DNA of 64,000 nucleotides from Kiritimatiellia bacterium (GTDB lineage: Bacteria > Verrucomicrobiota > Kiritimatiellia > RFP12 > UBA1067): assembly GCA_045537795.1 (NCBI GenBank), contig JAZSQE010000016.1:16968-80967 (forward strand), in the 5' to 3' direction. Below the pieces are notes generated by a model, which was not told where the DNA came from, made no database searches, and saw nothing but the letters and a program-made list of their open reading frames with translations. The position numbers and the translations under genes were made by a program. Positions within the stretch are counted from its first letter, which is position 1. Every line of letters starts with the position of its first letter. Positions 18,053 to 55,649 of the stretch are shown piece by piece.

Positions 18053-20263
18053 ATGAAGAAATACCCACTCGCAACTCGCACCGTTTGTGTTTTTGCTTCG
18101 GCCGTTGCTCTTTCAATAAGGGCGACAGGTGCCACGTTTACGGGACCGGGGCTTTTTACCGATCAGTCAAAATGGAGTGACGGTACGTTGCCGAAGATCA
18201 GTGAGGGAATAAATGAATTCATCAAAGGTCTTTGCGGAGCGACAAACGAGGCCGCGCGGCTTGAAGGCGGAAGATGGTTTCATCTGGGATGCAATGCTTC
18301 CGGGTGGCTGGAAGTAAAGGACTGCGATTTTTATTTTAGTGATTTCCGCCTTGGGAAAGCAGGATATACGGGTATATACAGGCAAAACGGAGGTTCTCTG
18401 TGGTTATCGAGCGACTCTACGGCACTTGGATACGAGAGCGGGTATCTAGAGGCGGGGATGATTCTCGAAAACGTCGCCGTGACTAACAAGGCGATCAAAA
18501 TCGGAAACACGGCTCCGAAGAACAACTGTCGGGGGAGCGCCTACTTATCCGCGACAAATTCGTCGTTCAAGTCGTCCGGGATAATTTCGACGGCGAATGG
18601 CGGGTGCGGCATCTTTGACGACTGCCGGATAACGGGCGGATACTTGCGCCCGAGCAACGGATCGATCGCTTTGATCGGCAGTGTGTTCACCAGCGGAAGT
18701 GACGGGGCTCTTTATCCGGGAGCGTCGGCCGGCGGCGTCGGTACGCTTGCCGTCACCAATTCCGTTTTGGATTTCGGGGAGAAAACCTATCTGGGCGGCG
18801 CCAATGGCGCCTGCGGTGAACTGGATCTGTCGGGATCGTTCTGGACGAACAAATATCAGGTGTATGTCGGAAACGTTGCAGGATCTGCAGGTGTTGTCCG
18901 CGCGGTCGATTCCACAATCAGTCTGAACAACCAGCTTGAGATCGGTTATGCGAACGAGAGTCGCGGTGAAGTCGTTTTCGGACCTGGAACGAAAGTTAAA
19001 CTCTCCAATTACTGCTATATCGGGAAAGGGTCGAATGCTGTCGGCCGTCTTGTGTTTGACGGCCTCGAGTGGGCGGATGTGTCGCATCCTTCCGGCTATC
19101 GCATCGCCGACGGATATGGTTCTGTCGGATCTATCGTGTATAAAGATATTCCCGGCGTGCGGGCTTACACGCTCGCGATCGTGTATAATTCCGGCAACAC
19201 AAACGGCTATGCGGAAACCGTCATTGACAACACGCATTATATGAATACGGCAAGTACGTACTTTGATGCAGGGAAGCGCCGGCAGCATGTCGTCGTCTGC
19301 AACGGCGCGACCTTCGATGTGTCAAGGAACGATACCGTATGGATGCCGAATGCGGCCGGTGCCAGCGCATCGTTTTTCGTGACGAATTCGCCGCTTTTCC
19401 GCCTTCAGGCGAACAAGTTGAAGCACGAGAAGGATCAAGCCCAGCTTCATCTGACGTTCCACGATTCGACGGCGCTGATCTGCACGAATTCGACATTCCT
19501 GATGGCACAGGGGGCCGGCTCTAAAGCGTCGATCACGCTTTCCGGCGCATCCTCGGTGCTGATTGATACGGTCGAGTGCTACACCGCGGGCGAGAGCGTG
19601 TTCGCGCTCAACGGCGGCACCTTGACCTTGGGCCGCGTGACCCAGGGTGCTCCCGTGTTCCAGTTCAACGGCGGTACGCTCAGGTCGAAATGGGCGACAA
19701 GTTCTTGGATTCCCGCCGCGTCCGACTGCACCGTTCTCGAGGGCGGTGCGGTTCTGGAGACCCGTCATGCGATGACGTTTCCCGCCGCTCTCGCGCACGG
19801 CGGGGAGGCCGCGAAAGACGGCGGTCTCGTGAAGAAAGGAGCCGGCACGCTGAAACTCACGGCGGCGGCGCACAGCTTTACCGGCGACATCACGGTGGAG
19901 GACGGCGTTCTCGATCTGACGGCCATTTCCGGCTGGACGCTCGCCGCGGGGCAGAAGATCGGCGGCGCGGGGACTCTCAAGGTGGCGGATGGATTCACCG
20001 CTGGCGGCATAAGTTACACCGCAGGCCAGTCGGCTCCGCTTACCGTGGACGGAGCAGTCTCTTTCGCGCCGGATTCGACCGTCGAGCTTTCGGGTGTCGA
20101 AGATGTCCCCGAGAAAAGCGGTTTCATCTTGCTTAAGGCCGATTCGATTGCCGGGGCGCAGAACATCTCCGCCCAGGGAATGCCGAAAGGTTGGACCATC
20201 CTCGTGAAGGATACGTACGTAAAGGCGGTCAGAAACACCGGTATGAGATTGATTATCAGATGA
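18053..20263 (+). CDS. Secreted beta-helical passenger-like protein with an autotransporter-associated beta-strand repeat, no beta-barrel
   Basis: AAGGAG RBS, signal peptide, Gly/Ser/Thr/Asn-rich repeats, FNGGTL, GGLVKKGAGTLKLTAAAHSFTGDITVEDGVL; ends GMRLIIR. Confidence 0.82.
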   Translation: MKKYPLATRTVCVFASAVALSIRATGATFTGPGLFTDQSKWSDGTLPKISEGINEFIKGLCGATNEAARLEGGRWFHLGCNASGWLEVKDCDFYFSDFRLGKAGYTGIYRQNGGSLWLSSDSTALGYESGYLEAGMILENVAVTNKAIKIGNTAPKNNCRGSAYLSATNSSFKSSGIISTANGGCGIFDDCRITGGYLRPSNGSIALIGSVFTSGSDGALYPGASAGGVGTLAVTNSVLDFGEKTYLGGANGACGELDLSGSFWTNKYQVYVGNVAGSAGVVRAVDSTISLNNQLEIGYANESRGEVVFGPGTKVKLSNYCYIGKGSNAVGRLVFDGLEWADVSHPSGYRIADGYGSVGSIVYKDIPGVRAYTLAIVYNSGNTNGYAETVIDNTHYMNTASTYFDAGKRRQHVVVCNGATFDVSRNDTVWMPNAAGASASFFVTNSPLFRLQANKLKHEKDQAQLHLTFHDSTALICTNSTFLMAQGAGSKASITLSGASSVLIDTVECYTAGESVFALNGGTLTLGRVTQGAPVFQFNGGTLRSKWATSSWIPAASDCTVLEGGAVLETRHAMTFPAALAHGGEAAKDGGLVKKGAGTLKLTAAAHSFTGDITVEDGVLDLTAISGWTLAAGQKIGGAGTLKVADGFTAGGISYTAGQSAPLTVDGAVSFAPDSTVELSGVEDVPEKSGFILLKADSIAGAQNISAQGMPKGWTILVKDTYVKAVRNTGMRLIIR

Positions 20264-20282
20264 AGAAATGCGGGAGCTAACC

Positions 20283-22940
20283 ATGAAGGTTTTGTCTTTT
20301 TGTCTTTTTGGCGCGCTTTGCGCATATAGAGTCGCAGGTGCGGAATTTCCGCTTGGAGATTTCACGACGCAACCCTTCAAATACAGCAAACTGCATCTTC
20401 AGGGAATAGCGTGCGACGAGACGGGGATTTATTATGGTTTTGCGGATGGCGTCACTAAAACCGATTGGACGGGCAAGGTTTTGGCGCAGGGTGCGAGTGT
20501 CTATGGTTCGTCCGGTCATATCGGTGACGTGTGTCTTCATAACGGACTTCTCTATGCGACGAGTTGGCGGACCAAGCCGGGAACGGCGAAACCCGGCGGC
20601 GCGCCGGGATCTGAGAATTCCGGCAGAGAAGGACTGATACAGGTTTTCAATTCCGCCGATCTTGTGATGGTTCCGGAGAAAAACAGAGTATTGCCGTATT
20701 CGACGGACGGGATCGAATTTTACGACGGGGCGTTTTGGATCGGACTGCCATATTCGGGGCCTTATCCGCATACTAATATGACAATCGCGGTATGGAACGA
20801 GGATTTTTCCAAAGAGCTTTCTCGTCCCGTGCATTATTCGGACGGCACAAAACTCCTTTATACTATGCAGACTCTCGCTGAGATGGACGGCCTTCTCTGG
20901 CATGGTTGCTATGTCGACGAGAATTGGTACAGGGCCAGGAAACTTCCGGTGCCTGCGAACAGGACGTATCTAACGGACAAGATGGGGAATATCGTCTACG
21001 CGACATCCGTCTGGACGGCCACGGGAATCGCCATGGTGCCCGAATCGCTTTCCCGTGGTCGCCGGCTTATCATTACCGCTGGTGACGCGAAGTCGGGGGG
21101 AGCCCGTGTGGATGTCCGCTTTTGGGAATGGCTCAACGGAGAGCTTGTTCCCTACAGGCCGGTAAATTCGTTTTCCGGCGCGAGCGATCTGTTTTTCCTT
21201 TGTGAATCCTCGGCATACGGACTGACCCGTGACGATGAATGGCAGCTTGGTCTCAAATACCGTGTCGGGCGGCCAGAGACAATATGCTCGACACTCGCAG
21301 ACTCCATGCGCTGCGTGCGCAATGGATGCCTTGACGGATTCGCGGCGCGCACGGTCGCGTTGGCGGCGGGGGCTGCGGATGTGTCCGACGTCGCGCATGA
21401 CGCTCTCGTCGCGCGAATGGAGGATCTTGTCCGGCTCGTACGCGCGAAGCAGCCGTCGGCGAACATTCTCCTTGCCTCCGTCGCGGCCAATGATGACATC
21501 AGAGGCACACGACGCTTGAACCGGCGGCTCTACGCCCTCGCAAAAAAACACGGAGCGGACTTCATTGATTGCGTGCCGGATGAACTCTTCGCATACTGCG
21601 AGTCGCGCTCGCGCATACGTTACGGACGCTGGTTGAACAGTTATCACGATGCCATTGTGTATAAAATCGGCCTCAAAGGAAAGCATCTCAAAAAGCCTTA
21701 CACGACGATGGACGAGGCTATGGGGATCATTTCCAAAGTGCGCGATTATTCCGGCGGTATGCGTCAGATCGTCTATCTTTGCGGCTGGCAGTTTGATGGA
21801 CATGATTCGAAATATCCGTCGTGGTCGCAGGTCGGTGAGCATGTGGATTACGCCGAAGAGAAAACGCCGCTTCTCGCGCTTAGGCGTTTCATCCGCGATG
21901 CACGCTCCCTTGGCGCCGACGTTTCGCTGCATGTCAACATGAACGATGCCTACACGAACGCCCCCGACTGGAAGGCGTACGCGGATGCGGATGCGATATG
22001 CCGGATGAAAGACGGTTCTCTGCAGCCGTATCAAGTGTTCGACGGAGAACAGAGTTATCAGATCAACCATGAGAAAGAATGGAATAGCGGGCTCGCGCGC
22101 AAGCGCATAGACGCGCTTCTTGATATGATTCCGGAATTGCTCGAGTCGAAGACGATACACATCGATGCCTTTTTCGGAGACGCTTCGCCGTATCACGGGC
22201 TCGGATACAAGGATGATATGAAGTGGTGCGATAGAATCGTCGATTACTGGCGAGAGAAGGGAATGGACGTTACCACAGAGCTGTTGAGCGACGTGGATCA
22301 GATTGGATATTTTCCGATGGTCTACCACCATAATATCGACGAGCGCCACCGTGTCGCGGTAGATCAGCGCGTCCTGTGCGGCGGCGACGGCGAATGGAGC
22401 GTGCGTAATATGAATTTCTATTCGTTCGATGATGCCTGGAAAGCGCGCACTCCAGACGCCGGCGTGGTTTATCCGGAAGCGTGGGGAGAAGGTCATTTTG
22501 CGGATATACGCAGACATCGCATGGCGGACGACGAGACGTTTCTTTCGAAACTCGTGCGTACGACGATGTTGAACGCTTGGTACAACAAGTTCCGCCCCGT
22601 CCGGCATACCGTCGATGCCGCTGTCTATCGTGTCGAATGGACGATGGATGTTCTTTCCGAGGTGCGGTTGTCGAATCGTCGGCTGACCGTGACGCAGCGG
22701 GGCCGGACGGTGGTGGAGAACGGGAATTATTTTCTCGATTATCCCGACGGAAAACTCGTCGTGTATTCGACGGACGGCGGTCGTTTGACGTTTATGCTGC
22801 CGCCGCTCCTGCAGTCGGAGCGTGTTTTTCGCGGTCGTACGTGGCCGTCGGGGAAAAGCGTGCAGGCGGATAGTGAAGCGGGCCGGCTGACGCTTGAACT
22901 CCGAAAGGGGACGGCGGTCGTGCTTTTTCCCGAGGAATGA
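20283..22940 (+). CDS. Multidomain secreted protein with a C-terminal endo-alpha-N-acetylgalactosaminidase-like (GH101-like) domain
   Basis: Signal peptide; HLQGIA..HIGD N-terminal beta-rich module; SGNH-like middle (LVRAKQPSANILL); YLCGWQFDGHDSKYP, VSLHVNMNDAY, TIHIDAF. Confidence 0.7.
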   Translation: MKVLSFCLFGALCAYRVAGAEFPLGDFTTQPFKYSKLHLQGIACDETGIYYGFADGVTKTDWTGKVLAQGASVYGSSGHIGDVCLHNGLLYATSWRTKPGTAKPGGAPGSENSGREGLIQVFNSADLVMVPEKNRVLPYSTDGIEFYDGAFWIGLPYSGPYPHTNMTIAVWNEDFSKELSRPVHYSDGTKLLYTMQTLAEMDGLLWHGCYVDENWYRARKLPVPANRTYLTDKMGNIVYATSVWTATGIAMVPESLSRGRRLIITAGDAKSGGARVDVRFWEWLNGELVPYRPVNSFSGASDLFFLCESSAYGLTRDDEWQLGLKYRVGRPETICSTLADSMRCVRNGCLDGFAARTVALAAGAADVSDVAHDALVARMEDLVRLVRAKQPSANILLASVAANDDIRGTRRLNRRLYALAKKHGADFIDCVPDELFAYCESRSRIRYGRWLNSYHDAIVYKIGLKGKHLKKPYTTMDEAMGIISKVRDYSGGMRQIVYLCGWQFDGHDSKYPSWSQVGEHVDYAEEKTPLLALRRFIRDARSLGADVSLHVNMNDAYTNAPDWKAYADADAICRMKDGSLQPYQVFDGEQSYQINHEKEWNSGLARKRIDALLDMIPELLESKTIHIDAFFGDASPYHGLGYKDDMKWCDRIVDYWREKGMDVTTELLSDVDQIGYFPMVYHHNIDERHRVAVDQRVLCGGDGEWSVRNMNFYSFDDAWKARTPDAGVVYPEAWGEGHFADIRRHRMADDETFLSKLVRTTMLNAWYNKFRPVRHTVDAAVYRVEWTMDVLSEVRLSNRRLTVTQRGRTVVENGNYFLDYPDGKLVVYSTDGGRLTFMLPPLLQSERVFRGRTWPSGKSVQADSEAGRLTLELRKGTAVVLFPEE

Positions 22941-22964
22941 CGCTTGCGAAAGGGAAATGCCAGA

Positions 22965-23975
22965 ATGAACAGACGGGAATTTGTGACACTCGGCACAGCC
23001 AGTGCATTCGTCGGTGCGGCGGGAGCCTCTGCGGAAAAAGCACTCCGGCCGCGTCCGTGCGATGCGTTCGATGCCGCGGTCGCGACGATCGACGCCACCA
23101 CCCCGGGCGATGAGGTCGCGCGCAAGGATGCGTTGGCCGTGATACAACGCGAGATAGCGGCGATGGGGCGCAAGGAACCATATAATGCGTTTCTGCGCGG
23201 CGGGCTTGCGCTCCCTGCGGAAGAGGTGGCTGCCATTCACGCCGCTTATCCACCGCTCAAATGGTACGATCATGCGTTTGATAAGGTTCTCCGAGAGTTT
23301 CAGGAGACGAAAGTTGACGGGGATATTCCGGCTGTGTGGTATGTCTACAACATGGGTATCGTTGTCAAAACGGCCGAAAGCGCGTTTTCTATTGATCTCT
23401 GCCACCGCAAAGCGCCGCATTTTGCACCGTTTCTCGATTTCGCGCTGATTACCCATAATCACGGCGATCATTTCACGCAGGCGTTCGTCTCGGCGATGGG
23501 GCGAGCAAAGAAGCCCGTGATGAGCAATTTCATCTTGATGTGGGACAGTTACAGCCGGCTTGAACGGGAGACGAAAAAATTCAAGAATGTTACCGTCACC
23601 GGCATTGCGGCCGATCACAACAAACATCTCCCCAAGGCGGTGACATGTTTCGAATGCCGGATGCCGAAGCGCGATGGAGGCGAATTCACGCTTTTCCATT
23701 CTGGCGACTGCTGCAGAGCCGACCACCTCGCTCCGTCGGTGAAGGAGCCGGACATTTATTTCGGGCATTGCGCCATAGGTCTGGATTTCAAGACGGCGTG
23801 GAAAACGACGATGCCCGCGAAACTGATGGTGCCTCTCCACCATCAGGAACTCGGGCATCTCGGCGGCCCGTGGAGGTGTGTTGGATTTGATCAGGAGCCG
23901 CGACATGTAATCGATGCGCTGCGTCCGTTAGGAGCGCGTGTCATGATGCCGGTGTGGGGCGACAGGATCGTGTGA
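22965..23975 (+). CDS. Tat-exported MBL-fold metallo-hydrolase
   Basis: MNRREFVTLG twin-arginine signal; THNHGDH (HxHxDH); FHSGD; PLHH. Confidence 0.85.
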   Translation: MNRREFVTLGTASAFVGAAGASAEKALRPRPCDAFDAAVATIDATTPGDEVARKDALAVIQREIAAMGRKEPYNAFLRGGLALPAEEVAAIHAAYPPLKWYDHAFDKVLREFQETKVDGDIPAVWYVYNMGIVVKTAESAFSIDLCHRKAPHFAPFLDFALITHNHGDHFTQAFVSAMGRAKKPVMSNFILMWDSYSRLERETKKFKNVTVTGIAADHNKHLPKAVTCFECRMPKRDGGEFTLFHSGDCCRADHLAPSVKEPDIYFGHCAIGLDFKTAWKTTMPAKLMVPLHHQELGHLGGPWRCVGFDQEPRHVIDALRPLGARVMMPVWGDRIV

Positions 23976-23976
23976 T

Positions 23977-26900
23977 ATGACGCTCTGTGCACTTTTGCTG
24001 GCGACGCTCGTTCCGGGCGTCAAGATTAACGGCGTCTGGCATGATTCCCGCTTGGCGGACGCGAACGGGCTCGTTCTGTCGGAAGCCGACGGACGTGTCA
24101 TCCTTGAAAACCGAAGTTCCCGATCTGTGCGCCTGCAGGAACTGGGGTGGCGCAAAGAGGCGCGGGACGAATTCGATGTCGCGGGGCTGAAAGTCTATCT
24201 CGAAGGCTGGCAGATGGCTTCTCCGTGCGGCGTCAGGGGGTTTGATGACGAACCATTCGATTATTCCGCGGAGTATCTTCATAATTGCATCTCCACTCCT
24301 TCGGATTTCCGTCCCGGTGAACGAGGGCGATTCCTCTCCGATCATCAGTGTTGTTTTCGCAGACCGGACGGGAGGATGAGGCTGTATGGTTTTACCACTG
24401 GAAAAGATATGTTTGGACATTTCCGCATGAAGCTCGATAAGGATGGTGTTCGCGAGTTTTACGCTCTTTCGGCATGCGACGGGGCTGTGCTTTCTCCCGG
24501 TGGCAGAATCGTGTCCGAACGCCTTGTAACGATGGAGGGGGTCGACACGGAGGAGCTGTTCGGCCGTTTCGCCGACCGCTGGGCGGCCGACTCCGGCGCT
24601 CGCCGCTGTTTTGCGCCGCCCGTCGGCTGGTGCAGTTGGTACTATTATTTCGACAAGGTTGCGTTGTCGGATGTTCTGGAAAACGCCGATTGGCTGAGGG
24701 AGCACCGTGCGGACGGATTTGAGAGCGTCAAAGTCATTCAGCTGGACGATGGTTATCAGACGGCGCTTGGAGATTGGTTGTCGACGAACGAAAAGTTTCC
24801 TGGCGGATTGCGGCGTTTCGCAGCCGAGGTGAAAGCTCGCGGTTTCATTCCTGCTGTATGGGTCGGGCCTTTCATGGCAGAGGAGAATTCCCGTCTTTTC
24901 GCGGAGCATCCAGACTGGATGGTCAAGGGGCCTGACGGCAGGCCGTTTTCTCCTCTCGGTTGGAGAAAGAACCATAAGGTGTATGCGCTGGACGGCACCA
25001 ACCCGGCGGTGCAGGATCATCTACGCACCTTGTTCAGAACCCTGAGGGGCTACGGCATAGATTACGTGAAACTTGATTTCTGCATGATTGCCTCATCTGT
25101 GCGGGGAGCGCGTTATCACGATTCTTCCGCTACGCGTGCGCAGGCTCTCCGCCGCGCGTTCGAGGCGATCCGCGAAGGCTTTGGCGAAGACGGTTTCATT
25201 CTCGGCTGCACGGCGCCGTTCGGTCCTCTTGTCGGAATAGTAGACGCGATGCGCTCTTCAACGGATATTACTCCGTATTGGGCGCCGGAGGGGAAGTGGC
25301 ATGCCGAAGCCCCGACTGTGCCGAACGTCTGCCGCAACATCATCAGCCACAATTACATGAATGGACGGCTTTGGATCAATGATCCAGATACGCTTATCGT
25401 CAGGGACGATGCGACAAAACTCGTGAAAAACGAAGTCGAGCTATGGGCCGAGGCCGTCGCGCGGGTAGGAGGGTCGCTTATGCTGTCGGACCGTTTTTCG
25501 ACTCTTTCGCAGGAACGTCTGTCTCTCGCCAGAAAAGTCGTCGATAGGATGGGTGCGTATATTGGGACTTTTCCGGCCGACCGCTGGGAACGAACGGTTC
25601 CTGCCGTGTGGCGTTCCGTGCGTGACGGCCGCCGCACGGACGCGATATTCGATTTCGACAAAACGCATACCGTGAACGTTTCGGTAACGAAAGGATATTG
25701 GCGCGAAGAGGCGGGTATACGCAAATATGCGGTTGGTCGCGATCCGGCGACAAGCGAGGCGGAGTCGAAGTCTGCGTATGAAAGACCCGTCGGCGGAAAG
25801 GTTTGGAAAATAACTTCCTCAATGACGCTTGACGACGTGAACGCACTGAACGTTCTGCCTGGGGACAAGGTGCTTTTCGAGAGGGGGAACGTTTGGCGAG
25901 GACAGCTTCAGCCGCGTTCGGGAAAGCCCGGTCACCCGGTTATGTACGGCGCCTGCGGAGAAGGTCCGAAACCCGTGATACAGTCAAGTTATCCGCGGAG
26001 CCGTCCGCGTGACTGGAGAAGAGCGCAAGATTGCGGAAAAAACGTGTGGATGACGCAAAGCGATGTCGCGACAGATGTCGGCAACGTTGTCCTCGTAAAA
26101 CGCGGCGGCCGTGTCGTGTGCGCGTTCAGAATGGCGAAGAAAGACGATCTCTCCGCCGATCTCGATTATTGGTACGATCCCGTCACGTATGCGGTGTATC
26201 TAGTATCGAAAGAAAATCCGGCCAGGCGCTTCGAGTCAATAGAATTGTGCGAAAAAGCCCATTGCGTTGAACATGCGAAAATGCACGATGTCGTTTATGA
26301 CGGGCTTGCTTTCAGGTATTCGGCGGCTCACGGCATTGGCGGCGATGGCGTCAAACGCATCACGATCAAGAATTGCGATATTTCGTACATAGGAGGAGGG
26401 TATCTTTATTTCGACAAGAAAGGCAACGGTGTTCGCTACGGAAACGGCATAGAGTTGTGGGCGGATTGCGAGGACGTGCTCGTCGTGTCAAACAATGTCT
26501 GGGAATGTTGGGACGCGGCGCTCACGAACCAGTCAAACGAGGATGGCGTCGTACAGCGCAATATCGTATGGCGCGGCAATGAGGTCCGCAACTGCGAATA
26601 TTCGTACGAATACTGGCAGCAAGGTGAACGCGCCCGCACTGAGAACGTTATTGTTGAGAATAACTGTTTCTACGATGCGGGCAAGGGCTGGGGACACCGT
26701 CAGCGTTGGAATCCGAACGCGGCGCATCTTATGTTCTACGATTCGACAGCGCATACCGAGGGTTTTGTAATACGGAACAATCTTTTTTCGCGGTCGGAAA
26801 ACACTGTGTTTAGGCTCTTCAACGACATGCTGGAAAGCCTCGTCTTCTACGGGAACGAATGGGTCGCCGGGAGGGGAACGTTGTGTCGTTTCCACGGGAG

Positions 26901-45313: not shown

Positions 45314-45317
45314 CGCG

Positions 45318-46617: not shown

Positions 46618-46674
46618 TAAAGAGCACGCTCAATAAAGAAAAATCAATGAAGAAAAAGCAAGGGAGTTATATCC

Positions 46675-47877
46675 ATGAAAAAAAGACTGTTTCTTATCGG
46701 TTCCGTTTTGACGTTATCCGGCATTGCGCAAGACTGCGCGACGGCGGATCTGAAAGGCCGGTTGCCTGAAATCTTTTCGAAGTGCGCGGCGCACTACAAG
46801 GCGTTGGACGCGGCGGTAACCCCGCTCATGAAGAATTCGAAAGGACAGACGATGCTTCCGCATGGGTACAAGCGCGGCAAGAAGATGTATGACATGCGCA
46901 GAATCGAGTGGTGGACATCCGGGCATTTTCCGGGTTCGCTCTGGTATCTCTACGAGGCTACGGGAGACGGCTTTTTCAAGGAGCGCGCGAGCGTCTGGAC
47001 GGAAAACCTCAAGCCGATTTCGACGTTCAAGGGGAATCATGACATCGGCTTTATGATGTACTGCTCGTTCGGCAACGCCCGACGTCTCCTCAAGACGGAG
47101 AAATATGATCATCTTCTCGTTGAAGCGGCAAATACGCTCTGCCTTCGCTTTAATCCGAAACTCGGTCTCATTCGCAGCTGGGGGAAGTCTGACGACAAGA
47201 AGGACTTTCTTGTCATACCCGACAACATGATGAACCTCGAACTTCTCGAATGGGCGGCAAAAGCGAAGAACGGCGAAAAGCGCTTCGCGGAGGTGGCGCG
47301 TTCACATGCGGACGTCACGATGAAGAATCATTTCCGCGCGGACGGCGGCACGTATCACGTGCTCAACTATTCGCAGAAGGACGGCCGTGTTCAGGAAATT
47401 CGCCGCGGACAGGGCGCGAGCTGTTTCACCGCATGGAGCCGCGGGCAGAGCTGGGCGATCTACGGCTATACGATGATGTACCGCGAGTCCGGCAACAAGG
47501 CGTATCTCGACTTCGCGCAGAAGGTGGCGGATTTCGCGATCAACCATCCGAACATGCCGGAGGACGGCATTCCGTACTGGGACTATGGTGCGCCCGGCGA
47601 GGAGCGCGATTCATCGGCAGGGGCGATCATGGCGTCGGGGCTTCTGGAGCTTTCGAAGTCTGTCGATGCGAAGAAGGGCGCGATATACCGCGATTTTGCC
47701 GTAAAGCAGCTCGTCTCGCTCGCATCGCCCGCCTATTTCTCCGAAGGAGACGAGGTCGGTCATTTTCTCTTGAAGCACGGTGTCGGACACAAGCCCGGCA
47801 ACAGCGAGATCGACACGCCTCTCAACTACGGCGACTACTACTTCCTCGAAGCGCTCGTACGAGTCCGCGATATGTAG
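46675..47877 (+). CDS. Unsaturated glucuronyl hydrolase (GH88)
   Basis: Signal peptide; WTSGHFPGSLW, HDIGF, DNMMNLELL, WSRGQSWAIYG, RDSSAGAI, YGDYYFLEAL. Confidence 0.95.
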   Translation: MKKRLFLIGSVLTLSGIAQDCATADLKGRLPEIFSKCAAHYKALDAAVTPLMKNSKGQTMLPHGYKRGKKMYDMRRIEWWTSGHFPGSLWYLYEATGDGFFKERASVWTENLKPISTFKGNHDIGFMMYCSFGNARRLLKTEKYDHLLVEAANTLCLRFNPKLGLIRSWGKSDDKKDFLVIPDNMMNLELLEWAAKAKNGEKRFAEVARSHADVTMKNHFRADGGTYHVLNYSQKDGRVQEIRRGQGASCFTAWSRGQSWAIYGYTMMYRESGNKAYLDFAQKVADFAINHPNMPEDGIPYWDYGAPGEERDSSAGAIMASGLLELSKSVDAKKGAIYRDFAVKQLVSLASPAYFSEGDEVGHFLLKHGVGHKPGNSEIDTPLNYGDYYFLEALVRVRDM

Positions 47878-47925
47878 TTCCCGCCGCCGGTGAATTGCGC
47901 GGCGCCGTATGAAATTAAAATTGTC

Positions 47926-49293
47926 ATGAAAGAAATATTCGCATATATCATAGGTCTCGGTGCGGCGGTGATGATGCCCGTCATCTTCTCCGTGCTTGGG
48001 ATGTGTATCGGAATCAAGCCGGCAAGGGCCGTGAAGAGCGGCCTTTTGGTCGGTGTGGGCTTTGTGGGGCTGGGTGTAGTCACTGCGCTTCTGACGACAA
48101 ATCTCGGTCCTGCGCTCAAGGGAATGACGCAGCTGTATCAGCTCAACCTTCCTTTCTTCGACCTTGGATGGCCCGCCGCCGCGGCTGTCGCCTATTCCTG
48201 CGCCGTAGGGGCGTTCATCATCCCCGTGTGCCTTGGCGTGAATGTCCTCATGCTCGTCATCGGCGTTACGCGCACGGTCAACATCGACCTCTGGAACTAC
48301 TGGCACTTCGCCTTTCTCGGCGCGATGGTGTTCTTCGCCACCGGTTCGCTCGCCTGGGCGTTCTACGCGGCGATCATGCTGTACATAATCACGATGTGCA
48401 TGGCCGACTTCACCGCGAAGGGGTTCCAGACCTATTACAAGGACATGGAGGGTATCTCCATCCCGCAGCCGTTCTGCCAGAGCTTTACGCCGTTCGCCGT
48501 CATGGTGGGCTGGCTTCTTGACCGCATCCCCGGATTCGAAAAGCTCAACATCGACGCGGAAGGTCTCCGCAGGAAGTTCGGTCTTCTCGGTGAGCCGCTC
48601 TTCCTCGGCGTCGTGATCGGTTGCGGAATCGGTGCGCTCAGATGCGATTCGCTCAAGGGTGCGGTCGAATCAATCCCGTCCATCCTCAAGCTTGGCGTGA
48701 CGGTCGGCGCGGTCATGGAGCTCATCCCGCGCATCACCGCGCTTTTCATCGAGGGACTGAAGCCGATCTGCGAACAGACGCGCGGTTTCGTGGAGAAGCG
48801 CTTCTCCGGACTGAAGGGGCTTTCGATCGGCATGTCGCCCGCGCTCGTAATCGGACATCCGACGACGCTTGTGGTGTCGATCCTTCTCATCCCCGTCATT
48901 CTCTTCCTTTCCGTCGTGCTGCCCGGAAACAAGTTTCTGCCGCTCGCGTCGCTGGCGGGAATGTTCTATCTCTTCCCGTGCGTGCTTCCCGTCACGAAGG
49001 GCAATGTCGCGAAGACCTTCATCGTCGGACTCGTCGCGCTTGTCTGCGGACTGTATTTCGTGACAGACTTGACGCCCGCGTTCTCCAAGGCGATTGCCGC
49101 CGCGAATGTGGACGGAATCACCGTTCCGCAGGGGTTTGAAGGCGGGGCGTCCATCGATTTCGCCGCCGCTTTCTGGTGCTGGACGCTCTTCCACCTGACA
49201 GTCACGTTCAAGTGGGTAGGCGCGGCGGTTTTGGCTCTGATCGCCGCCGCCATGTGCGCAATCAATTTCATCCGTATCCGAAGGAGCCGCTAA
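47926..49293 (+). CDS. Stand-alone PTS galactitol-family EIIC (GatC-like) membrane transporter
   Basis: LGAAVMMP, DLGWP, TRTVNIDLWNYWH, EGLKPI; many TM helices; no EIIA/EIIB gene nearby. Confidence 0.88.
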   Translation: MKEIFAYIIGLGAAVMMPVIFSVLGMCIGIKPARAVKSGLLVGVGFVGLGVVTALLTTNLGPALKGMTQLYQLNLPFFDLGWPAAAAVAYSCAVGAFIIPVCLGVNVLMLVIGVTRTVNIDLWNYWHFAFLGAMVFFATGSLAWAFYAAIMLYIITMCMADFTAKGFQTYYKDMEGISIPQPFCQSFTPFAVMVGWLLDRIPGFEKLNIDAEGLRRKFGLLGEPLFLGVVIGCGIGALRCDSLKGAVESIPSILKLGVTVGAVMELIPRITALFIEGLKPICEQTRGFVEKRFSGLKGLSIGMSPALVIGHPTTLVVSILLIPVILFLSVVLPGNKFLPLASLAGMFYLFPCVLPVTKGNVAKTFIVGLVALVCGLYFVTDLTPAFSKAIAAANVDGITVPQGFEGGASIDFAAAFWCWTLFHLTVTFKWVGAAVLALIAAAMCAINFIRIRRSR

Positions 49294-49294
49294 A

Positions 49295-50218
49295 ATGACA
49301 TCATTCATATTCTCCGCCTTGCTCGCCGCCGTATCCGCATATCCGTTCTGCAATGCGGAGGTCTGTCCGGAGCGTCGGGACGATTTCGTGTGGGAGAACG
49401 ACAAGTTCGGCATGCGGGCGTACGGACCGAGGGATGTCAACAAGTGGTCGGGATTCGACGTGTTCAACAAGTCCAATCCGTCCAACGTGTGCCTCAAATG
49501 GTGCCACAGGATAGACAAGGGCAATTTTCACAAGAACCGTGGGGAGGGGATGGACAACTACGCTGTCGGACCTTCCCGCGGTGTCGGCGGCATTGCGGTC
49601 TTCGGCGACGGCGAATGGAAGACTTATCCGAACTGGATATACAGCCGGGTACTCCATGCCGGTCCGGACTACTGTCAGTTTGAACTGGTGTATCCGGCGT
49701 GCTCCAAGGCCGGGAAGATGACGTGCCGCATCACTCTCAGGCGCGGCGAACATTTCTTCCGCAACGATGTGACGTTCGAGAACAAGTTCCCGATAGGGTT
49801 TCTGGCGGGACCGGGACTCGACCTCAATCCGCAGCGAGGACACGCAGGCGATCTGCTCGAAGAGCCTGGAGTCGTATCTCTTTTCGAGAATCCGAAGGGC
49901 GAAGGCGGTGCGGACGGTTCAACAATGACCGCGATATTCGTCTCCCCGGAGGATGCCGACGTGGTGAAGTTCCTGACAGACCATACGGGAAGCAGGGTGA
50001 TTGCGTTCGGCCGCAACAGCTTTACGTATTGGGCTGGCGCAAGCTGGTCGCTGGCCGGGGAGATCGCAGACGCCGCTTCGTGGCATGAAACGGTGCGCAG
50101 GTTTCGGAAACGTGTTCGCCATAACATGGCCGGCAATGGAAAGGCGATTGCGGAAGTGTGTGACGACGTGCATGGAATGCAGGTTGCGGATTTCCGAAAA
50201 ACGGGACAAAATCCATAG
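49295..50218 (+). CDS. DUF4861-family exported protein
   Basis: PERRDDFVWENDKFGMRAYGP, SGFDVFNK, H...GEGMDNYAVGPSRGVGG. Confidence 0.8.
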   Translation: MTSFIFSALLAAVSAYPFCNAEVCPERRDDFVWENDKFGMRAYGPRDVNKWSGFDVFNKSNPSNVCLKWCHRIDKGNFHKNRGEGMDNYAVGPSRGVGGIAVFGDGEWKTYPNWIYSRVLHAGPDYCQFELVYPACSKAGKMTCRITLRRGEHFFRNDVTFENKFPIGFLAGPGLDLNPQRGHAGDLLEEPGVVSLFENPKGEGGADGSTMTAIFVSPEDADVVKFLTDHTGSRVIAFGRNSFTYWAGASWSLAGEIADAASWHETVRRFRKRVRHNMAGNGKAIAEVCDDVHGMQVADFRKTGQNP

Positions 50219-50264
50219 AGGTGGTTTTGGCTGCCTCTCTAACAAAAACAAAAGGGAGCCTGAT

Positions 50265-52091
50265 ATGATGGACAGGTTGCAGTCTCGAAAGTTTCTGGGC
50301 GGAGGTCGTGCCGTGCGCGGCATTCTGCTGGCTTTGACGTGTGGCGTGTGCGTATGCGCATTGGCGTCGCCGCTTGACGGATTGCGTCCGCATCCGCGGC
50401 TCTTCACGGATGAAGCAGGCTTTCGGGACATCAAATCCCGCATGTCCGGAGATGAAGTGCTCGCCGGTTGCGCCGCCGGGGTGAAAAAAGCGGCAGATGA
50501 TTTTCTCAAGGTGGAACTTCCTGTCAGGCGCATAAAAGACGGACGGCGCCTGGCGCCGATCCATACGGATGTGCTCAAGCAAGTGACGGCCCTGTCGATG
50601 GCGTATCGTCTTTTCGGAGATGCGAAACATCTTGAAAAAGCTCAAGCCATCATGTGTGCAGCTGCGCGTTTTTCGGATTGGAACCCTTCGCATTTTCTGG
50701 ATACGGCGGAATTGTCCTTCGCGCTCGCATTGGGGTACGACTGGCTCTATTCCGATCTTGCACCCGACGCCAGAAGGCAAATCCGCGCCGCAATCGTGGA
50801 AAAGGGCCTTGACGCCTCGATTGCGGTTCCCGAGCCACGCAGGAGTCTGAGCAATTGGGGACAGGTGTGTTCCGGGGGGATTGTGGCGGCGGCACTGGCT
50901 GTGGCGGAAGACGAACGCGAGAAATGCGAAGGTATTCTCGCAGATGTCAAAAAATGGATGCCGGAAATCATGAAGATGTATCTTCCCAACGGCTCCTATC
51001 CGGAAGGTCCGGAGTATTGGAGGTACGGTACCGGATACAATGTGATCTTGATTGCCGTTCTTGAGAGCGCGCTCGGAACGGATTTTGGATTTGCTTCGAT
51101 GCCCGCGTTCGAGATGACGGGTTCGTATCCAGATCTGCTTACGGGACCTGCGGGCGAATTTTACAATTACTCAGACAACAGGGTGAAGCGCATCCCGTCC
51201 TGGTATGTCTGGTGGTTCGCACAGCGTTACGGCAAACCGGGCATGGTGGATCTGTTCGAAAGGGCTGCGCTCGAGAAATGCCTCGCCCGGCAGGAGGCGG
51301 ATACTGTTTCCCCGATGATGTTGTTCTGCTATTTCCCCCGGAAGGGGACGCCGGCGGTGGATCTGCCGTTGGCCTGGAGGGCGGGCGGAGAGACCGATCT
51401 TTCCGTCCAGCGCTCTTCATGGAATGCCGATGCGCGTTATGCCGCGATCAAAGGCGGGAAAACAGTCAGCCCTCACGGGCACATGGATGGTGGGTCGTTC
51501 ATCTACGAATCGAAAGGCGTTCGCTGGGCCTGCGATCTTGGGCGTGAAGAATACGCAAAAGCCGAGCATGCCATTGGCATGGAATTCTGGCGATACAAGG
51601 AAGGGTCTGGCCGCTATAAAGTGTTCCGTTTGAGCGCAAATGCGCACAATACGCTTGTGCTGGACGGCAGTGCGCATTGCGCGACCGGTGAAGCGAGAGT
51701 TGTCTCCCTCACTCAAGGGCCTCTGTCGGAATCGGTTGTCGACATGTCGGAGCTGTTCACCAATGCCACCAAGGTCGTCCGGAAGGGGATTATGCTTGAG
51801 GATGGCTACCGGGTGGAAGATAGGGTGGAGGGGCTTCGCGCAGGTGCGCCAATCAGGTGGTCTATGTACACCAAGGCGAAAGTTGAATGCAAAGGCGACC
51901 GTCTCGTACTGAAAGAGCGTGGACAGACGCTTGAAATGACGAGAGGAACACCTTCCGGCGCTTCCGCATGGAAGGTGGAGAAGGCGCCGCGCGGAGCGGA
52001 TTGGGAAACCCCAAACGACGGATTTTCGAGGATATCGTTTGTCGTACCCTCCAATCCGCGAGGTACGGATTTCAGTGTTACATTCAAATAG
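50265..52091 (+). CDS. Heparinase II/III-like polysaccharide lyase (PL35-like)
   Basis: HPRLF, WNPSHFLDTAE, NWGQVC, YPEGPEYWRYG, HGHMDGGSF, AHNTL. Confidence 0.85.
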   Translation: MMDRLQSRKFLGGGRAVRGILLALTCGVCVCALASPLDGLRPHPRLFTDEAGFRDIKSRMSGDEVLAGCAAGVKKAADDFLKVELPVRRIKDGRRLAPIHTDVLKQVTALSMAYRLFGDAKHLEKAQAIMCAAARFSDWNPSHFLDTAELSFALALGYDWLYSDLAPDARRQIRAAIVEKGLDASIAVPEPRRSLSNWGQVCSGGIVAAALAVAEDEREKCEGILADVKKWMPEIMKMYLPNGSYPEGPEYWRYGTGYNVILIAVLESALGTDFGFASMPAFEMTGSYPDLLTGPAGEFYNYSDNRVKRIPSWYVWWFAQRYGKPGMVDLFERAALEKCLARQEADTVSPMMLFCYFPRKGTPAVDLPLAWRAGGETDLSVQRSSWNADARYAAIKGGKTVSPHGHMDGGSFIYESKGVRWACDLGREEYAKAEHAIGMEFWRYKEGSGRYKVFRLSANAHNTLVLDGSAHCATGEARVVSLTQGPLSESVVDMSELFTNATKVVRKGIMLEDGYRVEDRVEGLRAGAPIRWSMYTKAKVECKGDRLVLKERGQTLEMTRGTPSGASAWKVEKAPRGADWETPNDGFSRISFVVPSNPRGTDFSVTFK

Positions 52092-52124
52092 GCATTTAAA
52101 GCAGGACATTAAAGGAACAAAATC

Positions 52125-55100
52125 ATGATAAGAGTAGATGACATCAGCGCGGAAAAAAGGAATGGTATGCGTGCATTCGCGGGGCGAATGACGCATATTG
52201 CGGGGATTGTCGCGGCCTCTGGACTTCTTGCGGCGGGGATGTCCGCTTCCGCGTCTGCGGCGGAAGTTCGCTGGACGGCGCAAGGTGGAAGCCGGGCGAT
52301 GTCGGATTCTATGAACTGGGCTACCGCCGTAAATTTTGGAGACGGAACGGATACTGTAGTTTTTGGAGATGCCGGAAACCTGGCGCAGGCCGATAACCAT
52401 GTTTTGCTCAAGGGCTTGAAATTTGATATCGCAAACGCTTTTGAGCTTTCGGCGACGGATGGAGGCTCTGTCACGCTTGGAGAGGGCGGCATCACGGCGG
52501 GCAATCAGAAGGGGTACAAGATTTCGGCCCCCGTCAATATTGCGGCCAATCAAACGTGGTCTCTCGGAGATAAAGAGTATCCGGGGTTTTTGGTGTCGGG
52601 ACCGCTGAATTCGACGTGGAGTTTTTCGTTGACGAAAACGGGGAATGGGACGCTTGCTGTCTCCGGCGGCGGCACGTACACTGGCGATATCCGTCTTGAC
52701 GGGGGCTCGATCCTGCTTCGCGGTGAAAATCCCTTTGGTTCGGGTGAGGGCACCTTGCATATTGCATCCCACCGAACCTTGATATTGGAAAGCGCAAAGG
52801 TCAACAAAAAGATCGAGTTTGCCTGCCCCACTGGTACTGATTACAGCTCGGATACCGTATTGAGCGTGTCCGGGACTGGAGACTCTGTACTGGAATCGGG
52901 TTTGTCGTTCACTGGCAGCAACTACTTGCGGATAAACTCCTACAACAAAGAAAGCCGCTTGACGATCAAGTCGGGGGTGTCTGGGAGCGGAGTCCTATCG
53001 ATGTATCCCGTTAAAGGGGCTTCGTATGTGTTTGATGCTCCTGTGAGATTGGAAAAAAACTTGGTGTTTCATGTCTATAACCCTGAAAACAACAGGGGGT
53101 CGGACGGTTTTATCGGACTTTACGAATTTGCGGCGGAAGGTAATACGATGCCAGCGTTTGGCCATGCTGACAGCGACAAGCGTTTTACCTGCAGCAAACT
53201 GAGCACGACGGTTGATTGGGCGTTTGACAATGCCGATATGAAGATGGTATTTGGATACGGTTCCGTCTGGGATCTCTGCGGCACGTCCCAGCGTGTCGGT
53301 CGATTGGATTTCTACAGTGGCGCTGGAGCTGATTCGATAATAACCAACTCCTCCGCAGTCAACGCCAAACTTTATCTCGTGCCTAATGCCAATAAGACTC
53401 CGTCGGTTGTATTCGGTGGCTATCTGTCGGTTGATATCACGGCCAGCGCTGATTCCGTAACGACCATTCTGACAAATGCAATGACGGCCACGGGAGAGTT
53501 GAGCATCGGCAAAGGAACGCTCGCATTCGATTTCGACGGTTCCTGGACGCAGGCATTGAAGGTGACTGTTGCATCCGGAGCGGCGCTGCGTTTCGGCGCG
53601 AAAAATGTTTTTGGTGAAGGCACTGAACTTGTCCTTGGGAGAGATGCCAATTTGCTGTTCCCCGTAGCAGGTGACGGATCGGTAGTTACTCAGAAGGTTG
53701 GGTTCCTTTCGAAAGACGGAACTTCCATGCCGCGCGGCTTCTATGAATTTGACGGAGGCGTGCTGAAAGTCGAGTATTCGGGACGGAAAGACATTGTTGC
53801 TGGAGAGCTTGCTCTTTCAGCAGGGGAAAGTTTCACTCTTGATGAATCTGTTCGCTGCGAAAAGTTCGATAAAATCACTCTTGGCGACAGATCACGCCTC
53901 GAGATGACGACATCCGCCTTTTTCAAAGACAATGCGGAGTTTATTCTGACATTGGGCGAAGGGAGCGTTCTCGATCTTTTGGAGAACGTCGATCTGTATG
54001 CGGTGTCCGTCACGGTGAACGGGGTTTCGATAGTGCCCGGAAGCTATACTGCGGCCAATGCCTCTTGGATTTCCGGTGAGGGACACGTGTTCATTCCGTA
54101 CGGAACAATTACGGGAAGCAACGTCGAATGGACGGCACAAGGGGCTGACGATTTGATGTCCACGCCTGAGAATTGGGCGTCTCCAGTCAATCTTGCGGAC
54201 GGATCGCTTTATGGCGTTTTCGGGAAAGGCGAATCGGCAGCCATTTCGGGCGAAAAGTTCCTGAACGGCATGTCGTTCTGCTCCGGCGGGGATTTTTCGA
54301 TAGCGCCCACGGACGGCACCGCTCTTCTGAAATTGGCGACAGGCGGCATTTCCGTGACCGGGAATGGAGCGGTCTCGCTTTCCGTCCCGGTTTGTATAGA
54401 CGGTACCCAAATCTGGTGCGCTGATGCTGATCTTATGGTTTCCTCTCCGGTGGATTCCGATTCTCTTGCCCGGTATTCGATCAGAAAAACCGGTGACGGG
54501 AAACTGTCGCTTTGGGGTGGTGGCAGTTTCGCCGGTGACATTCACTACGATGGCGGAAATCTCGAATTCGGCGGAGATACGGTGTTCGGTGACTCCAAAG
54601 CCGGGGGGACTGTTTACGTCTCGCCTCTGAAAGATCTTGTGCTGAACGGATGCGTCCTCAATAAATCTGTAATGTTCAATATCGACAACCATACCCAATG
54701 GGCTGGACATTCGCTTTCTTTTGGGAAGGGGGGAAATACGGTATCCGGCAAGGTTTCGTTCGGGAACAGAAATTTATGGATCAATTTGAAGAGCGGTTCC
54801 GATTCCGTGCTGTCTGGTGGATTGGAGGATAAAAATCCATCTGATGTTGGCTATGTATATATCTTTGCATATTCGGGTGGCAGACTGACAATTGCGGACA
54901 AGCCTGTGCGTACGGTGAACATGAGATACAAAGTCGATTTGAATAAACCCGATCTCGACAAGGACGGATATTCTGGTTATCTGACGTTCGCCGTCGCAGG
55001 CAACAGAATATCGCAGCTTGGTCGTAGAGACGGTGGTGAAACTCTAAACTACTGTTTTTTGAGTACGACTGTCGACTGGGCGTTTGACAATCCCGGCATG

Positions 55101-55649
55101 AAAATGGTTTTCGGACGCAATTCCGTATGGGATATGTGCGGCACATCCCAGCGCGTGGGACATCTTGATACAGTGCAGCCGAGTTACAATTGGGAGAAAT
55201 TGACGGTGATCACTAATTCCGCTGAAACTGCCGCAACGTTATATTCGACGCCAAGTGCCGATTCTACACTGTTTGTCCGTATGGGCGGCAAACTCTCCGT
55301 GGCTTTTTCGGGCGACAAGAAAACCGTTGTCGCACATGCAATGGAGGCTCAGGGCGCTCTCTGTGTGGATGGAGGAAATCTCGAATTCGCCTCTGGCGGT
55401 TCCTGGCGTCAGGCAACGGATGTTGCGGTGAGGGGGTCCGGCAAGATTACGCTTGCGACCAGTCGCGTGTTCGACAAGAAAGTGCGCATGGAACTGGATT
55501 CGATGGATTCTTTGGATATCGCATCGGGAATCGGTGTGCGTGTCGCTTCGCTCGTTGTGGGCGGAGTCGAAATGCCGTCGGGCGACTATCCCGCAGGAAG
55601 CGGTACGTTGTCCGTCGGGACGGTGGCCATGCGCATTATCGTGCGCTGA
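52125..55649 (+). CDS. Large secreted passenger-like protein with autotransporter-associated repeats and an internal duplication
   Basis: Signal peptide (start may be 52167 or 52188); LTKTGNGTLAVSGGGTYTGDI and IRKTGDGKLSLWGGGSFAGDI; no barrel; ends AMRIIVR. Confidence 0.82.
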   Translation: MIRVDDISAEKRNGMRAFAGRMTHIAGIVAASGLLAAGMSASASAAEVRWTAQGGSRAMSDSMNWATAVNFGDGTDTVVFGDAGNLAQADNHVLLKGLKFDIANAFELSATDGGSVTLGEGGITAGNQKGYKISAPVNIAANQTWSLGDKEYPGFLVSGPLNSTWSFSLTKTGNGTLAVSGGGTYTGDIRLDGGSILLRGENPFGSGEGTLHIASHRTLILESAKVNKKIEFACPTGTDYSSDTVLSVSGTGDSVLESGLSFTGSNYLRINSYNKESRLTIKSGVSGSGVLSMYPVKGASYVFDAPVRLEKNLVFHVYNPENNRGSDGFIGLYEFAAEGNTMPAFGHADSDKRFTCSKLSTTVDWAFDNADMKMVFGYGSVWDLCGTSQRVGRLDFYSGAGADSIITNSSAVNAKLYLVPNANKTPSVVFGGYLSVDITASADSVTTILTNAMTATGELSIGKGTLAFDFDGSWTQALKVTVASGAALRFGAKNVFGEGTELVLGRDANLLFPVAGDGSVVTQKVGFLSKDGTSMPRGFYEFDGGVLKVEYSGRKDIVAGELALSAGESFTLDESVRCEKFDKITLGDRSRLEMTTSAFFKDNAEFILTLGEGSVLDLLENVDLYAVSVTVNGVSIVPGSYTAANASWISGEGHVFIPYGTITGSNVEWTAQGADDLMSTPENWASPVNLADGSLYGVFGKGESAAISGEKFLNGMSFCSGGDFSIAPTDGTALLKLATGGISVTGNGAVSLSVPVCIDGTQIWCADADLMVSSPVDSDSLARYSIRKTGDGKLSLWGGGSFAGDIHYDGGNLEFGGDTVFGDSKAGGTVYVSPLKDLVLNGCVLNKSVMFNIDNHTQWAGHSLSFGKGGNTVSGKVSFGNRNLWINLKSGSDSVLSGGLEDKNPSDVGYVYIFAYSGGRLTIADKPVRTVNMRYKVDLNKPDLDKDGYSGYLTFAVAGNRISQLGRRDGGETLNYCFLSTTVDWAFDNPGMKMVFGRNSVWDMCGTSQRVGHLDTVQPSYNWEKLTVITNSAETAATLYSTPSADSTLFVRMGGKLSVAFSGDKKTVVAHAMEAQGALCVDGGNLEFASGGSWRQATDVAVRGSGKITLATSRVFDKKVRMELDSMDSLDIASGIGVRVASLVVGGVEMPSGDYPAGSGTLSVGTVAMRIIVR

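Follow-up and report, generated by a model that had tools for sequence, protein, structure and literature searches.

C-terminal sorting signals described in bacteria are, to our knowledge, all either tripartite, with a motif, a membrane helix and a basic tail on which a sortase-type enzyme in the membrane acts, or complete folded domains. Shorter labels exist; in the peroxisomal targeting signal PTS1 (-SKL), in KDEL and in bacterial PDZ-protease recognition, a few residues and the free carboxylate are the entire signal. Here we analyse a seven-residue C-terminal tail, hereafter the tag, that closes two exported proteins (proteins 1 and 2) encoded in a 64,000 nucleotide stretch of DNA from a Kiritimatiellia bacterium (assembly GCA_045537795.1, contig JAZSQE010000016.1, positions 16,968 to 80,967), which as a whole is called the window. 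The window lies on contig C16 of a genome (labelled G000) of 2.36 Mb in 77 contigs, with 56.8% G+C and 91% completeness. The motif formed by the tail is real, is locked to the C-terminus and is present on exported, otherwise unrelated proteins.

The PEP-CTERM/exosortase system (PF07589 and TIGR02595; PF09721) resembles the tag in that its signal closes Sec-exported proteins of the Planctomycetes-Verrucomicrobia-Chlamydiae group, often ones with a beta-helix or PATR repeats. The tag moreover occupies the same slot behind the same cap motif and has a glycine near its start, a hydrophobic stretch and a basic end. It differs in having five hydrophobic residues where PEP-CTERM has a helix of about 20, and a single Arg, Gln or Lys in place of an Arg cluster; a membrane-spanning helix and an Arg-rich cluster are both absent from the tag, and the PEP-CTERM models PF07589 and TIGR02595 gave no match in proteins 1 and 2 in Pfam and NCBIfam scans. 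The beta-signal of outer-membrane proteins (OMPs) is reportedly read by BamA and BamD and is said to follow the consensus G-x-x-hydrophobic-x-hydrophobic with an aromatic end; lineage-specific variants are known for this signal too. Like it, the tag is short and C-terminal, with a Gly and alternating hydrophobic residues. However, the hosts of the tag are soluble solenoids and not barrels, and the tag ends in R, Q or K (33/35 R and 2/35 K in G000; Q in a relative, G197), whereas the OMP-like proteins of G000 keep F, W or Y ends.

The C-terminal domains (CTDs) of type IX secretion (T9SS; type A, PF18962), the final strand of which is hydrophobic with basic residues, likewise mark large secreted glycan-active proteins, and 8 of 150 homologues of a tagged protein had T9SS-CTD-like ends by regular expression. 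These CTDs are, however, folded domains of 70–100 amino acids (aa), whereas the tag has seven residues and no Pfam match; PF18962/TIGR04183 found no match in the 12 tagged proteins scanned, the T9SS genes themselves (SprA, PorV, PorU) not having been searched for. T9SS CTDs and lipopolysaccharide anchoring are the subject of PMC12860637. The PATR repeats and passenger-like beta-solenoid of the window proteins recall type Va autotransporters and two-partner secretion, but these proteins have neither a C-terminal barrel of about 300 aa nor a two-partner secretion domain, there is no second Omp85, and no TpsB was found in the G000 assembly (91% complete). The tag also lacks the signature motif and helix of LPXTG/sortase, GlyGly-CTERM and MYXO-CTERM signals (genes for sortase and rhombosortase lay outside the searches). 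Its strict terminal position suggests a likeness to PTS1, KDEL and PDZ-protease recognition, from which it differs in compartment, sequence and receptors; no PDZ or TPR protein was identified as its reader. A full-text literature search, with subscription-journal papers and supplements outside its reach, found no paper on such a tag and none combining 'PEP-CTERM' with a word beginning 'Kiritimatiell'.

Results

A position-locked C-terminal motif on exported proteins

Translation of the open reading frames (ORFs) gave ...VRNTGMRLIIR-stop as the C-terminus of protein 1 and ...GTVAMRIIVR-stop as that of protein 2. The original prediction, made from the letters of the window alone, had read GMRLIIR-stop and AMRIIVR-stop on two proteins that differ over most of their length, with no other protein of the window ending in this way, and on each of these points it was borne out: there was no significant similarity between protein 1 and protein 2 (best BLASTP E = 0.16, limited to the PATR repeat), and a crude gene list of the window held no other ORF with such a C-terminus.

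Across the genome, an M[RK][LIVF]3[RK] ending was found on proteins 1 and 2 only, and loosening position -6 raised the number to seven. The pattern G[LIVFM][RK][LIVF]3R was terminal in 6 of 3420 stop-to-stop frames (at least 200 aa), with seven internal occurrences in 1,354,665 positions; a relaxed pattern allowing any residue at -5 and -3 was terminal in 52 of 8702 frames (at least 100 aa) versus 8.2 expected from its internal frequency. A crude set of 1978 genes yielded 41 flagged as tagged, 35 of them of at least 300 aa, and the pattern in this genome, G-[FLM]-x-[ILV]-[IF]-[VIL]-R-stop, is carried by about 2% of its proteins. The profile of the 35 longer proteins had G at -7 (32/35), F, L or M at -6 (35/35), a variable -5, I, L or V at -4 (35/35), I (25/35) or F (6/35) at -3, V, I or L at -2 (35/35) and R (33/35) or K (2/35) at -1. 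The consensus first proposed, MR(L/I)I(I/V)R, captured a tail that is real and locked to the C-terminus, but was drawn too narrowly, since forms with G followed by F, L or M, forms ending in Q and forms starting in GT also exist.

Seven tagged copies were compared at the nucleotide level. Their codons, downstream DNA and stop codons (TAA three times, TGA three times and TAG once) all vary, and the conservation is therefore at the protein level; stop-codon read-through and a common DNA element were ruled out by the same variation, and the next gene starts 4 nt after that of protein 1. By a crude signal-peptide rule, 23 of the 30 tagged proteins with complete N-termini scored as exported, compared with 323 of 948 others (Fisher p = 5e-6), which is the enrichment on signal-peptide proteins that the original prediction had put forward as a check by regular expression; several of the seven tagged proteins missed by this rule show a signal peptide by eye.

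The tag is not particular to autotransporter-like proteins, as had been supposed. Its hosts include PATR solenoids, LamG proteins, DUF5123/pectate-lyase-like proteins and proteins with weak Chlam_PMP matches, and most are without any Pfam family. The sequence upstream of the tag varies between host families, and no barrel, CTD or other C-terminal domain was found in the 12 tagged proteins scanned with Pfam (and NCBIfam for the window pair). The earlier judgement that autotransporter barrels, PEP-CTERM/LPXTG and T9SS CTD signals do not fit thus agrees with scans in which no such domain, motif or helix appeared, and the stated lack of a TpsB partner agrees with the presence of a single Omp85 (BamA) in the assembled 91% of the genome.

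Conservation among homologues and relation to the predicted fold

All 16 homologues of protein 1 that were fetched, from 88% down to 27% identity, have kept the tag; they end G-hydrophobic-x-hydrophobic-x-hydrophobic-[RK], with drift at -5 and -3 (GLRLIVR, GFIFVIR, GFSLVFK, GLTVSIR). For protein 2 the tag stands at the end of 15 of the 16 listed relatives (the query being counted among the 16). Ala at -7 occurs only in its closest relatives and is a local variant, the others having Gly, and relatives at 46% identity or less end in GFKMIVR, GMTMSVR, GLQVLVR, GMVVSFR, GVMLIFR and GYIMIVR.

An AlphaFold2 (AF2) model of protein 1, built on an alignment of 13 sequences, had a mean predicted local distance difference test score (pLDDT) of 88.9 and presented an all-beta solenoid reaching residue 727 of 736, with no barrel. 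The final strands are at residues 714–718 and 722–727, residues 728–736 are coil and the last 10-residue block has a mean pLDDT of 47. The model of a second family (a 510-aa DUF5123-like protein; pLDDT 73.8) falls below 50 at residues 490–510 and is poor over its entire final 45 residues. As modelled, the tag lies outside the predicted fold in these two families, and the idea that it forms a terminal beta-strand found no support, AF2 leaving the tail unstructured. In a Foldseek search against the PDB, autotransporter passengers were weakly alike to protein 1 (Ag43 best, E = 1.7e-3; template-modelling scores 0.19–0.24), and 'passenger-like' is therefore a loose term.

Lineage-specific forms of the tag

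Homologues of one tagged family in relatives end in GGTLVTFQ, PGTMLKIQ and PSLFIIR. Forms of the tag were counted in genomes with back-translated patterns, each set against a reversed-pattern control; these counts are provisional where loci were not checked as ORFs. An excess of the G-hydrophobic...R form was seen in six genomes (G000, 39 versus 3 in the control; G068, 24 versus 3; G074, 22 versus 6; G152, 20 versus 4; G164, 16 versus 2; and G194, 27 versus 1), all of which belong to family f1. The Q form (GTMIxFQ) was counted 34 times versus 8 in G197 and 16 versus 9 in G083. Counts for the GT...R form were 47 versus 1 in G007, 31 versus 0 in G194, 30 versus 0 in G074, 14 versus 0 in G068, 9 versus 1 in G197, 8 versus 0 in G134, 7 versus 0 in G083 and 0 versus 1 in G000.

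Loci were checked as ORFs in several of these genomes. In G197, a single-contig genome of the same family as G000, 15 of 16 loci were frames of at least 400 aa with G-T-[MIVL]-I-x-F-Q at the end, those that were complete had signal peptides, and the remaining locus was a 103-aa frame; in G007, which has the form GT-hydrophobic(4)-R, seven of the eight loci checked were frames of 518 to more than 1000 aa. In G041 both forms occur among paralogues. Across a class-wide sample of 151 genomes, 13 had at least four GT...R matches, the control reaching two at most; G226 (29 matches) and G260 (8) belong to other families, and their figures are pattern counts only. Apparent excesses in genomes of other classes (G008, 17 versus 7; G088, 20 versus 7) were chance matches in frames of 8–103 aa (0/7 and 0/8), and no occurrence outside the class was confirmed among these two genomes checked at ORF level.

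Family f3, G053 (of the same family as G000) and the single-contig G023 were at control level for all three patterns, and G053 held no convincing tag among 189 long frames in 331 kb of its genome of about 2.0 Mb. One form runs through a whole genome, it changes between sister genera, and the tag is missing from some lineages; such concerted forms per genome are what a common reader would yield.

The slot behind the cap motif

A HMMER search with a 510-aa tagged protein against 1.84 billion representatives (50% identity) returned 4761 matches, and the best 150 were examined. The tag was at the end of 77 of these (31 G-hydrophobic...R, 25 GT...R, the others K, Q or x variants). A cap motif, D-x-G-[CA]-[YF]-E, precedes it in 71 of the 77, and the linker between the two is of 4–6 residues in 68 of the 71. 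No PEP motif was found in the linkers of the 77 representatives or within the 12 C-terminal residues of the 35 tagged G000 proteins, in which positions -8 to -10 are variable. The ends of the 73 untagged representatives were labelled with our own regular expressions, with no verification by hidden Markov models, as T9SS-CTD-like (8), dockerin-like (4), F-Y-R-[IL] strand ends (12), acidic (4), PEP-CTERM (1, P0064) and unclassified (44). In P0064, VPEP-G-MLLLL...RR stands directly behind the cap motif, and in a PATR protein of the tag-less genome G035 the sequence ...IYLTYSA-IPEP-helix-basic stands where protein 1 has ...TYVKAVRNT-GMRLIIR. A profile of the protein 1 family gave a single PATR match only in five tag-less genomes.

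PEP-CTERM proteins were also counted. Matches to PF07589 numbered 1, 2, 7, 3, 0, 6, 1, 6, 5, 2 and 8 in 11 tagged genomes, and 1, 5, 6, 16, 16, 17, 21, 28, 33 and 115 in 10 tag-less genomes with exosortase; this inverse abundance of PEP-CTERM and tag is no more than a tendency, the genomes being kin.

Other endings were seen among the same representatives. Four of them (P0084, P0106, P0111 and P0134) have tag-like ends behind the cap motif with W, Y or H as the last residue (GLVILLW, GLLLLVY, GLQILVW and GMLFVVH), and these ends appear, from their sequence, closer to OMP beta-signals. Giant proteins of 1000–7600 aa carry another C-terminal ending, ...G-F-Y-[RK]-[IV]-x-V, frequently with a few acidic residues after it. 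GFYRIVVDVE closes a 6165-aa protein of G000 encoded outside the window (C71:9277-27774), and the ending occurs in at least 12 of the 150 representatives (P0036, P0045 and P0046 among them) and in several giants of G053 (loci L081, L082, L088 and L097). Possibly this ending forms the final strand of a different C-terminal module.

Candidate readers of the tag

The original prediction had called for a search for outer-membrane proteins or proteases that co-occur with the tag; Omp85, S41 proteases, secretins and three outer-membrane candidates do not track it. A dedicated secretin was rejected: G000 has four secretin genes, but 2–11 matches were present in every genome searched and the orthologue types were not split by tag. 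The four genes are on contigs C12, C13, C37 and C71 (loci L002–L006), and two of them adjoin genes for outer-membrane beta-barrels, one a DUF481 protein and the other an unannotated 453-aa protein. A dedicated Omp85 or TpsB was rejected on finding a single PF01103 match (BamA) in G000 and in each f1 genome. S41 tail-specific protease (PF03572) is present everywhere and was rejected as reader. A single S41 match was seen in 10 of 11 tagged genomes, and a second, in a frame of about 1100–1500 aa, in G053, four f3 genomes and G197, a pattern that may reflect chance or kinship, or the loss of a protease attacking hydrophobic C-termini.

The presence of exosortase does not discriminate tagged from tag-less genomes: PF09721 matched in all 11 tagged genomes, G000 included, and in 10 genomes without the tag, 22 of the 25 genomes in total having a match. 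In G000 an exosortase-EpsI gene (C5:35637-37277) lies 2 kb upstream of a tagged gene. The row to which it belongs (C5:30819-41430, locus L015) begins with a multi-pass membrane protein of about 1355 aa, a 308-aa membrane protein and the exosortase, with an extra C-terminal part that we take to be EpsI-like, and continues with a membrane protein that by eye is glycosyl-phosphate-transferase-like and then the tagged Gly-rich 705-aa protein. G000 has a single PEP-CTERM-like protein (C39:5075-5671).

Comparison of the C-terminus of BamA with the form of the tag showed nothing consistent: BamA ends in GYDF in genomes with the R form and also in tag-less G053, in GFE in G083, G197 and G041, and in GFD in G007. 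A complex prediction for BamA residues 340–782 with protein 1 residues 640–736 scored 0.00 (one run, no controls), a result that carries no weight either way. BamA C-termini vary unusually in this order (...GYDF, ...GFE, ...GFD, ...GF, ...GVD/GID and ...GFDN at loci L001, L054, L055, L046, L053 and L057–L059), and several are without a terminal aromatic residue.

The tagged proteins of the window

The coordinates of both tagged genes and their features are given in Table 1. Both proteins belong to PATR/PF12951-TIGR02601, with at least one repeat above cut-off, and in Pfam and NCBIfam scans they matched PATR/TIGR02601 only. Protein 1 has a single repeat at residues 591–622 (PF12951, E = 2.8e-7, 30.9 bits, cut-off 27; TIGR02601, E = 8.9e-10, 38.2 bits, cut-off 19.85). 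The repeat of protein 2, at residues 168–198, is above cut-off for TIGR02601 (E = 6.2e-6, 25.9 bits), whereas its Pfam PATR score of 21.5 bits is below the cut-off of 27. Protein 2 has, by eye, the look of a tandemly duplicated unit of about 580 aa, both halves opening with ...V-[RE]-W-T-A-Q-G...NWA and both holding ...STTVDWAFDN..MKMVFG..SVWD.CGTSQRVG.LD.

Table 1. Features of the two tagged genes, in window coordinates
Feature	Position	Strand	Basis
Gene for exported beta-solenoid protein 1, 736 aa, tag at end	18053..20263	+	ORF and translation
Probable Sec signal peptide of protein 1, MKKYPLATRTVCVFASAVALSIRATGA	18053..18133	+	By eye; AF2 residues 1-24 have pLDDT < 50
Tag G-M-R-L-I-I-R of protein 1; stop TGA at 20261-20263	20240..20260	+	Translation
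Gene for exported PATR-repeat protein 2, 1174 aa, tag at end	52125..55649	+	ORF and translation
Tag A-M-R-I-I-V-R of protein 2; stop TGA at 55647-55649	55626..55646	+	Translation

The gene that begins 4 nt past the stop codon of protein 1 encodes an 890-aa protein with a signal peptide (20268-22940), and the two are therefore probably co-transcribed. Both tagged genes stand amid genes for large exported proteins that are untagged (for example 10879-14436, 14433-17975 and 50001-52091); only some of the exported proteins of these loci therefore bear the tag.

Discussion

We favour the reading, to which we would give a probability of about one half, that a component of the envelope reads the tag in trans, as an address or docking label, for surface delivery or retention. 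The window proteins would be Sec-exported beta-solenoids, each with a free-hanging heptapeptide made of a Gly, five mostly hydrophobic residues and an Arg (Gln or Lys elsewhere). A component of the envelope would recognise this peptide in trans by the free C-terminus and the hydrophobic stretch, the latter perhaps docking, between the Gly and the long polar residue, into a groove or sheet edge of the receptor. That component would carry large glycan-binding or glycan-cutting proteins over the outer membrane, or keep them on the cell surface, and the tag would do in these Kiritimatiellia the job that PEP-CTERM, T9SS CTDs or dockerins do on homologues elsewhere. We infer reading in trans, a surface destination and strand docking from the position of the tag, its concerted conservation and module swapping, all of them features of the sequences. 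A signal read in trans is suggested because the tag is strictly terminal, changes form in concert by lineage and is exchanged with sorting and docking modules, and surface delivery or retention would be the likeliest purpose because the hosts are large, exported and glycan-binding or lyase-like, and the swapped modules (PEP-CTERM, T9SS CTD, dockerin) serve that end.

A narrower version, which we hold only tentatively, is that of a minimal tag in the manner of KDEL or PTS1, consisting of seven residues and the free carboxylate in the forms ...R, ...Q and GT...R, with a receptor in the envelope, that would have replaced PEP-CTERM/exosortase sorting.

Several observations weigh against a label read in trans. 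The reader was not found, the presence or counts of secretin, Omp85, exosortase and S41 being independent of the tag. The neighbours of the 35 tagged genes include no recurrent family (187 neighbours, all-against-all BLAST), the families among them having two or three members and lying beside three tagged genes at most. Three outer-membrane candidates (the 453-aa protein, the DUF481 protein and a BBP2_2 porin) have clear orthologues in tag-less G053 and are therefore unfit as a dedicated reader. Pattern counts can mislead, as the excesses in G008 and G088 proved false; the PEP-CTERM contrast is confounded by kinship, with exceptions in G053 (1), G014 (5) and G113 (6); and the AF2 model of the 510-aa protein, being poor across its last 45 residues, says little. 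With regard to the export or anchoring machinery that the original prediction had envisaged, position, concerted conservation and module swapping fit, but no machinery was found.

The tails might instead associate with one another, or with a nucleator at the surface, zipping some 35 proteins into multi-enzyme assemblies in a dockerin-like fashion. We regard this as unlikely, although of the rivals to a trans-read label it is the one we would rank highest. Tails that are alike within a genome and change together between genera are what a like-with-like contact demands, the sequence has a strong beta propensity, the search for a reader gene found none, and in some homologues the slot is taken by dockerin-like ends; yet some genomes mix forms (G074 with 22 G-hydrophobic...R and 30 GT...R; G197 with 34 Q and 9 GT...R), and a zipper would need no strict lock to the very C-terminus. 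Nor need anything read the tail if it were a structural end-piece, a capping strand shielding the open edge of solenoid or sandwich domains. The linker of 4–6 residues behind the cap motif (68/71) and the preceding strand-turn would permit a hairpin with the last strand, but AF2 does not pack the tail, which is found on unrelated folds, the last residue changes between R and Q across whole genomes, and homologues swap in sorting modules or lack the tail; we consider this the least probable of the explanations.

Two further rivals derive the tag from a described signal. It could mimic the beta-signal, copying the last strand of an OMP with one polar residue added and docking on BamA or on the open edge of another barrel, a possibility that we rank behind self-association and think improbable. 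Its role would be to let a protein cross the outer membrane without a barrel of its own or stay attached to a barrel. The register of G (-7), hydrophobic (-4) and hydrophobic (-2) resembles that reported for the OMP beta-signal, the Q form without its last residue (GTMISF) ends in Phe and the OMPs of G000 end in F, W or Y, and the hosts are passenger-like solenoids without a barrel, in a genome in the assembled 91% of which no TpsB was found. The terminal aromatic residue is nevertheless absent, seven residues are too few to span the membrane, and BamA is found equally in tag-less genomes, with a C-terminus that does not co-vary with the form of the tag. More doubtful again is a degenerate PEP-CTERM that has shed the PEP motif together with most of the helix and on which exosortase still acts. 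P0064 has VPEP-G-MLLLL... behind the same cap motif, with its Gly aligned to that of the tag, exosortase is present in 11 of 11 tagged genomes that have few PEP-CTERM proteins (none at E <= 0.01 in G164), and the exosortase-EpsI gene of G000 lies 2 kb upstream of a tagged gene. Against this, the tag lacks a PEP motif as well as any membrane-spanning stretch, exosortase occurs equally in genomes without the tag, and a conserved PEP-CTERM frame of about 170–210 aa recurs that could be the enzyme's own substrate.

What is new here are the Q and GT...R forms, the spacing of 4–6 residues, the comparisons of the slot in PEP-CTERM and PATR proteins, the inverse tendency of PEP-CTERM and the sister genus without the tag. 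Natural contrasts for locating the reader are offered by the lineage forms (R, Q and GT-R) together with tag-less G053, and the tag could provide a very short display tag for engineering. If our favoured reading is true, there would be a new route, or a new last step, of protein sorting in diderm bacteria that requires no transmembrane segment and no folded signal domain, and a tag of seven residues on about 2% of the proteome would be far smaller than the bacterial sorting signals described. It would account for the placement of barrel-less passenger-like proteins and lyase-like beta-helices. Knowledge of the tag would allow the exported surface proteins of these bacteria to be predicted from sequence, and the tag would point to a novel reader in uncultured polysaccharide degraders of the gut and rumen.

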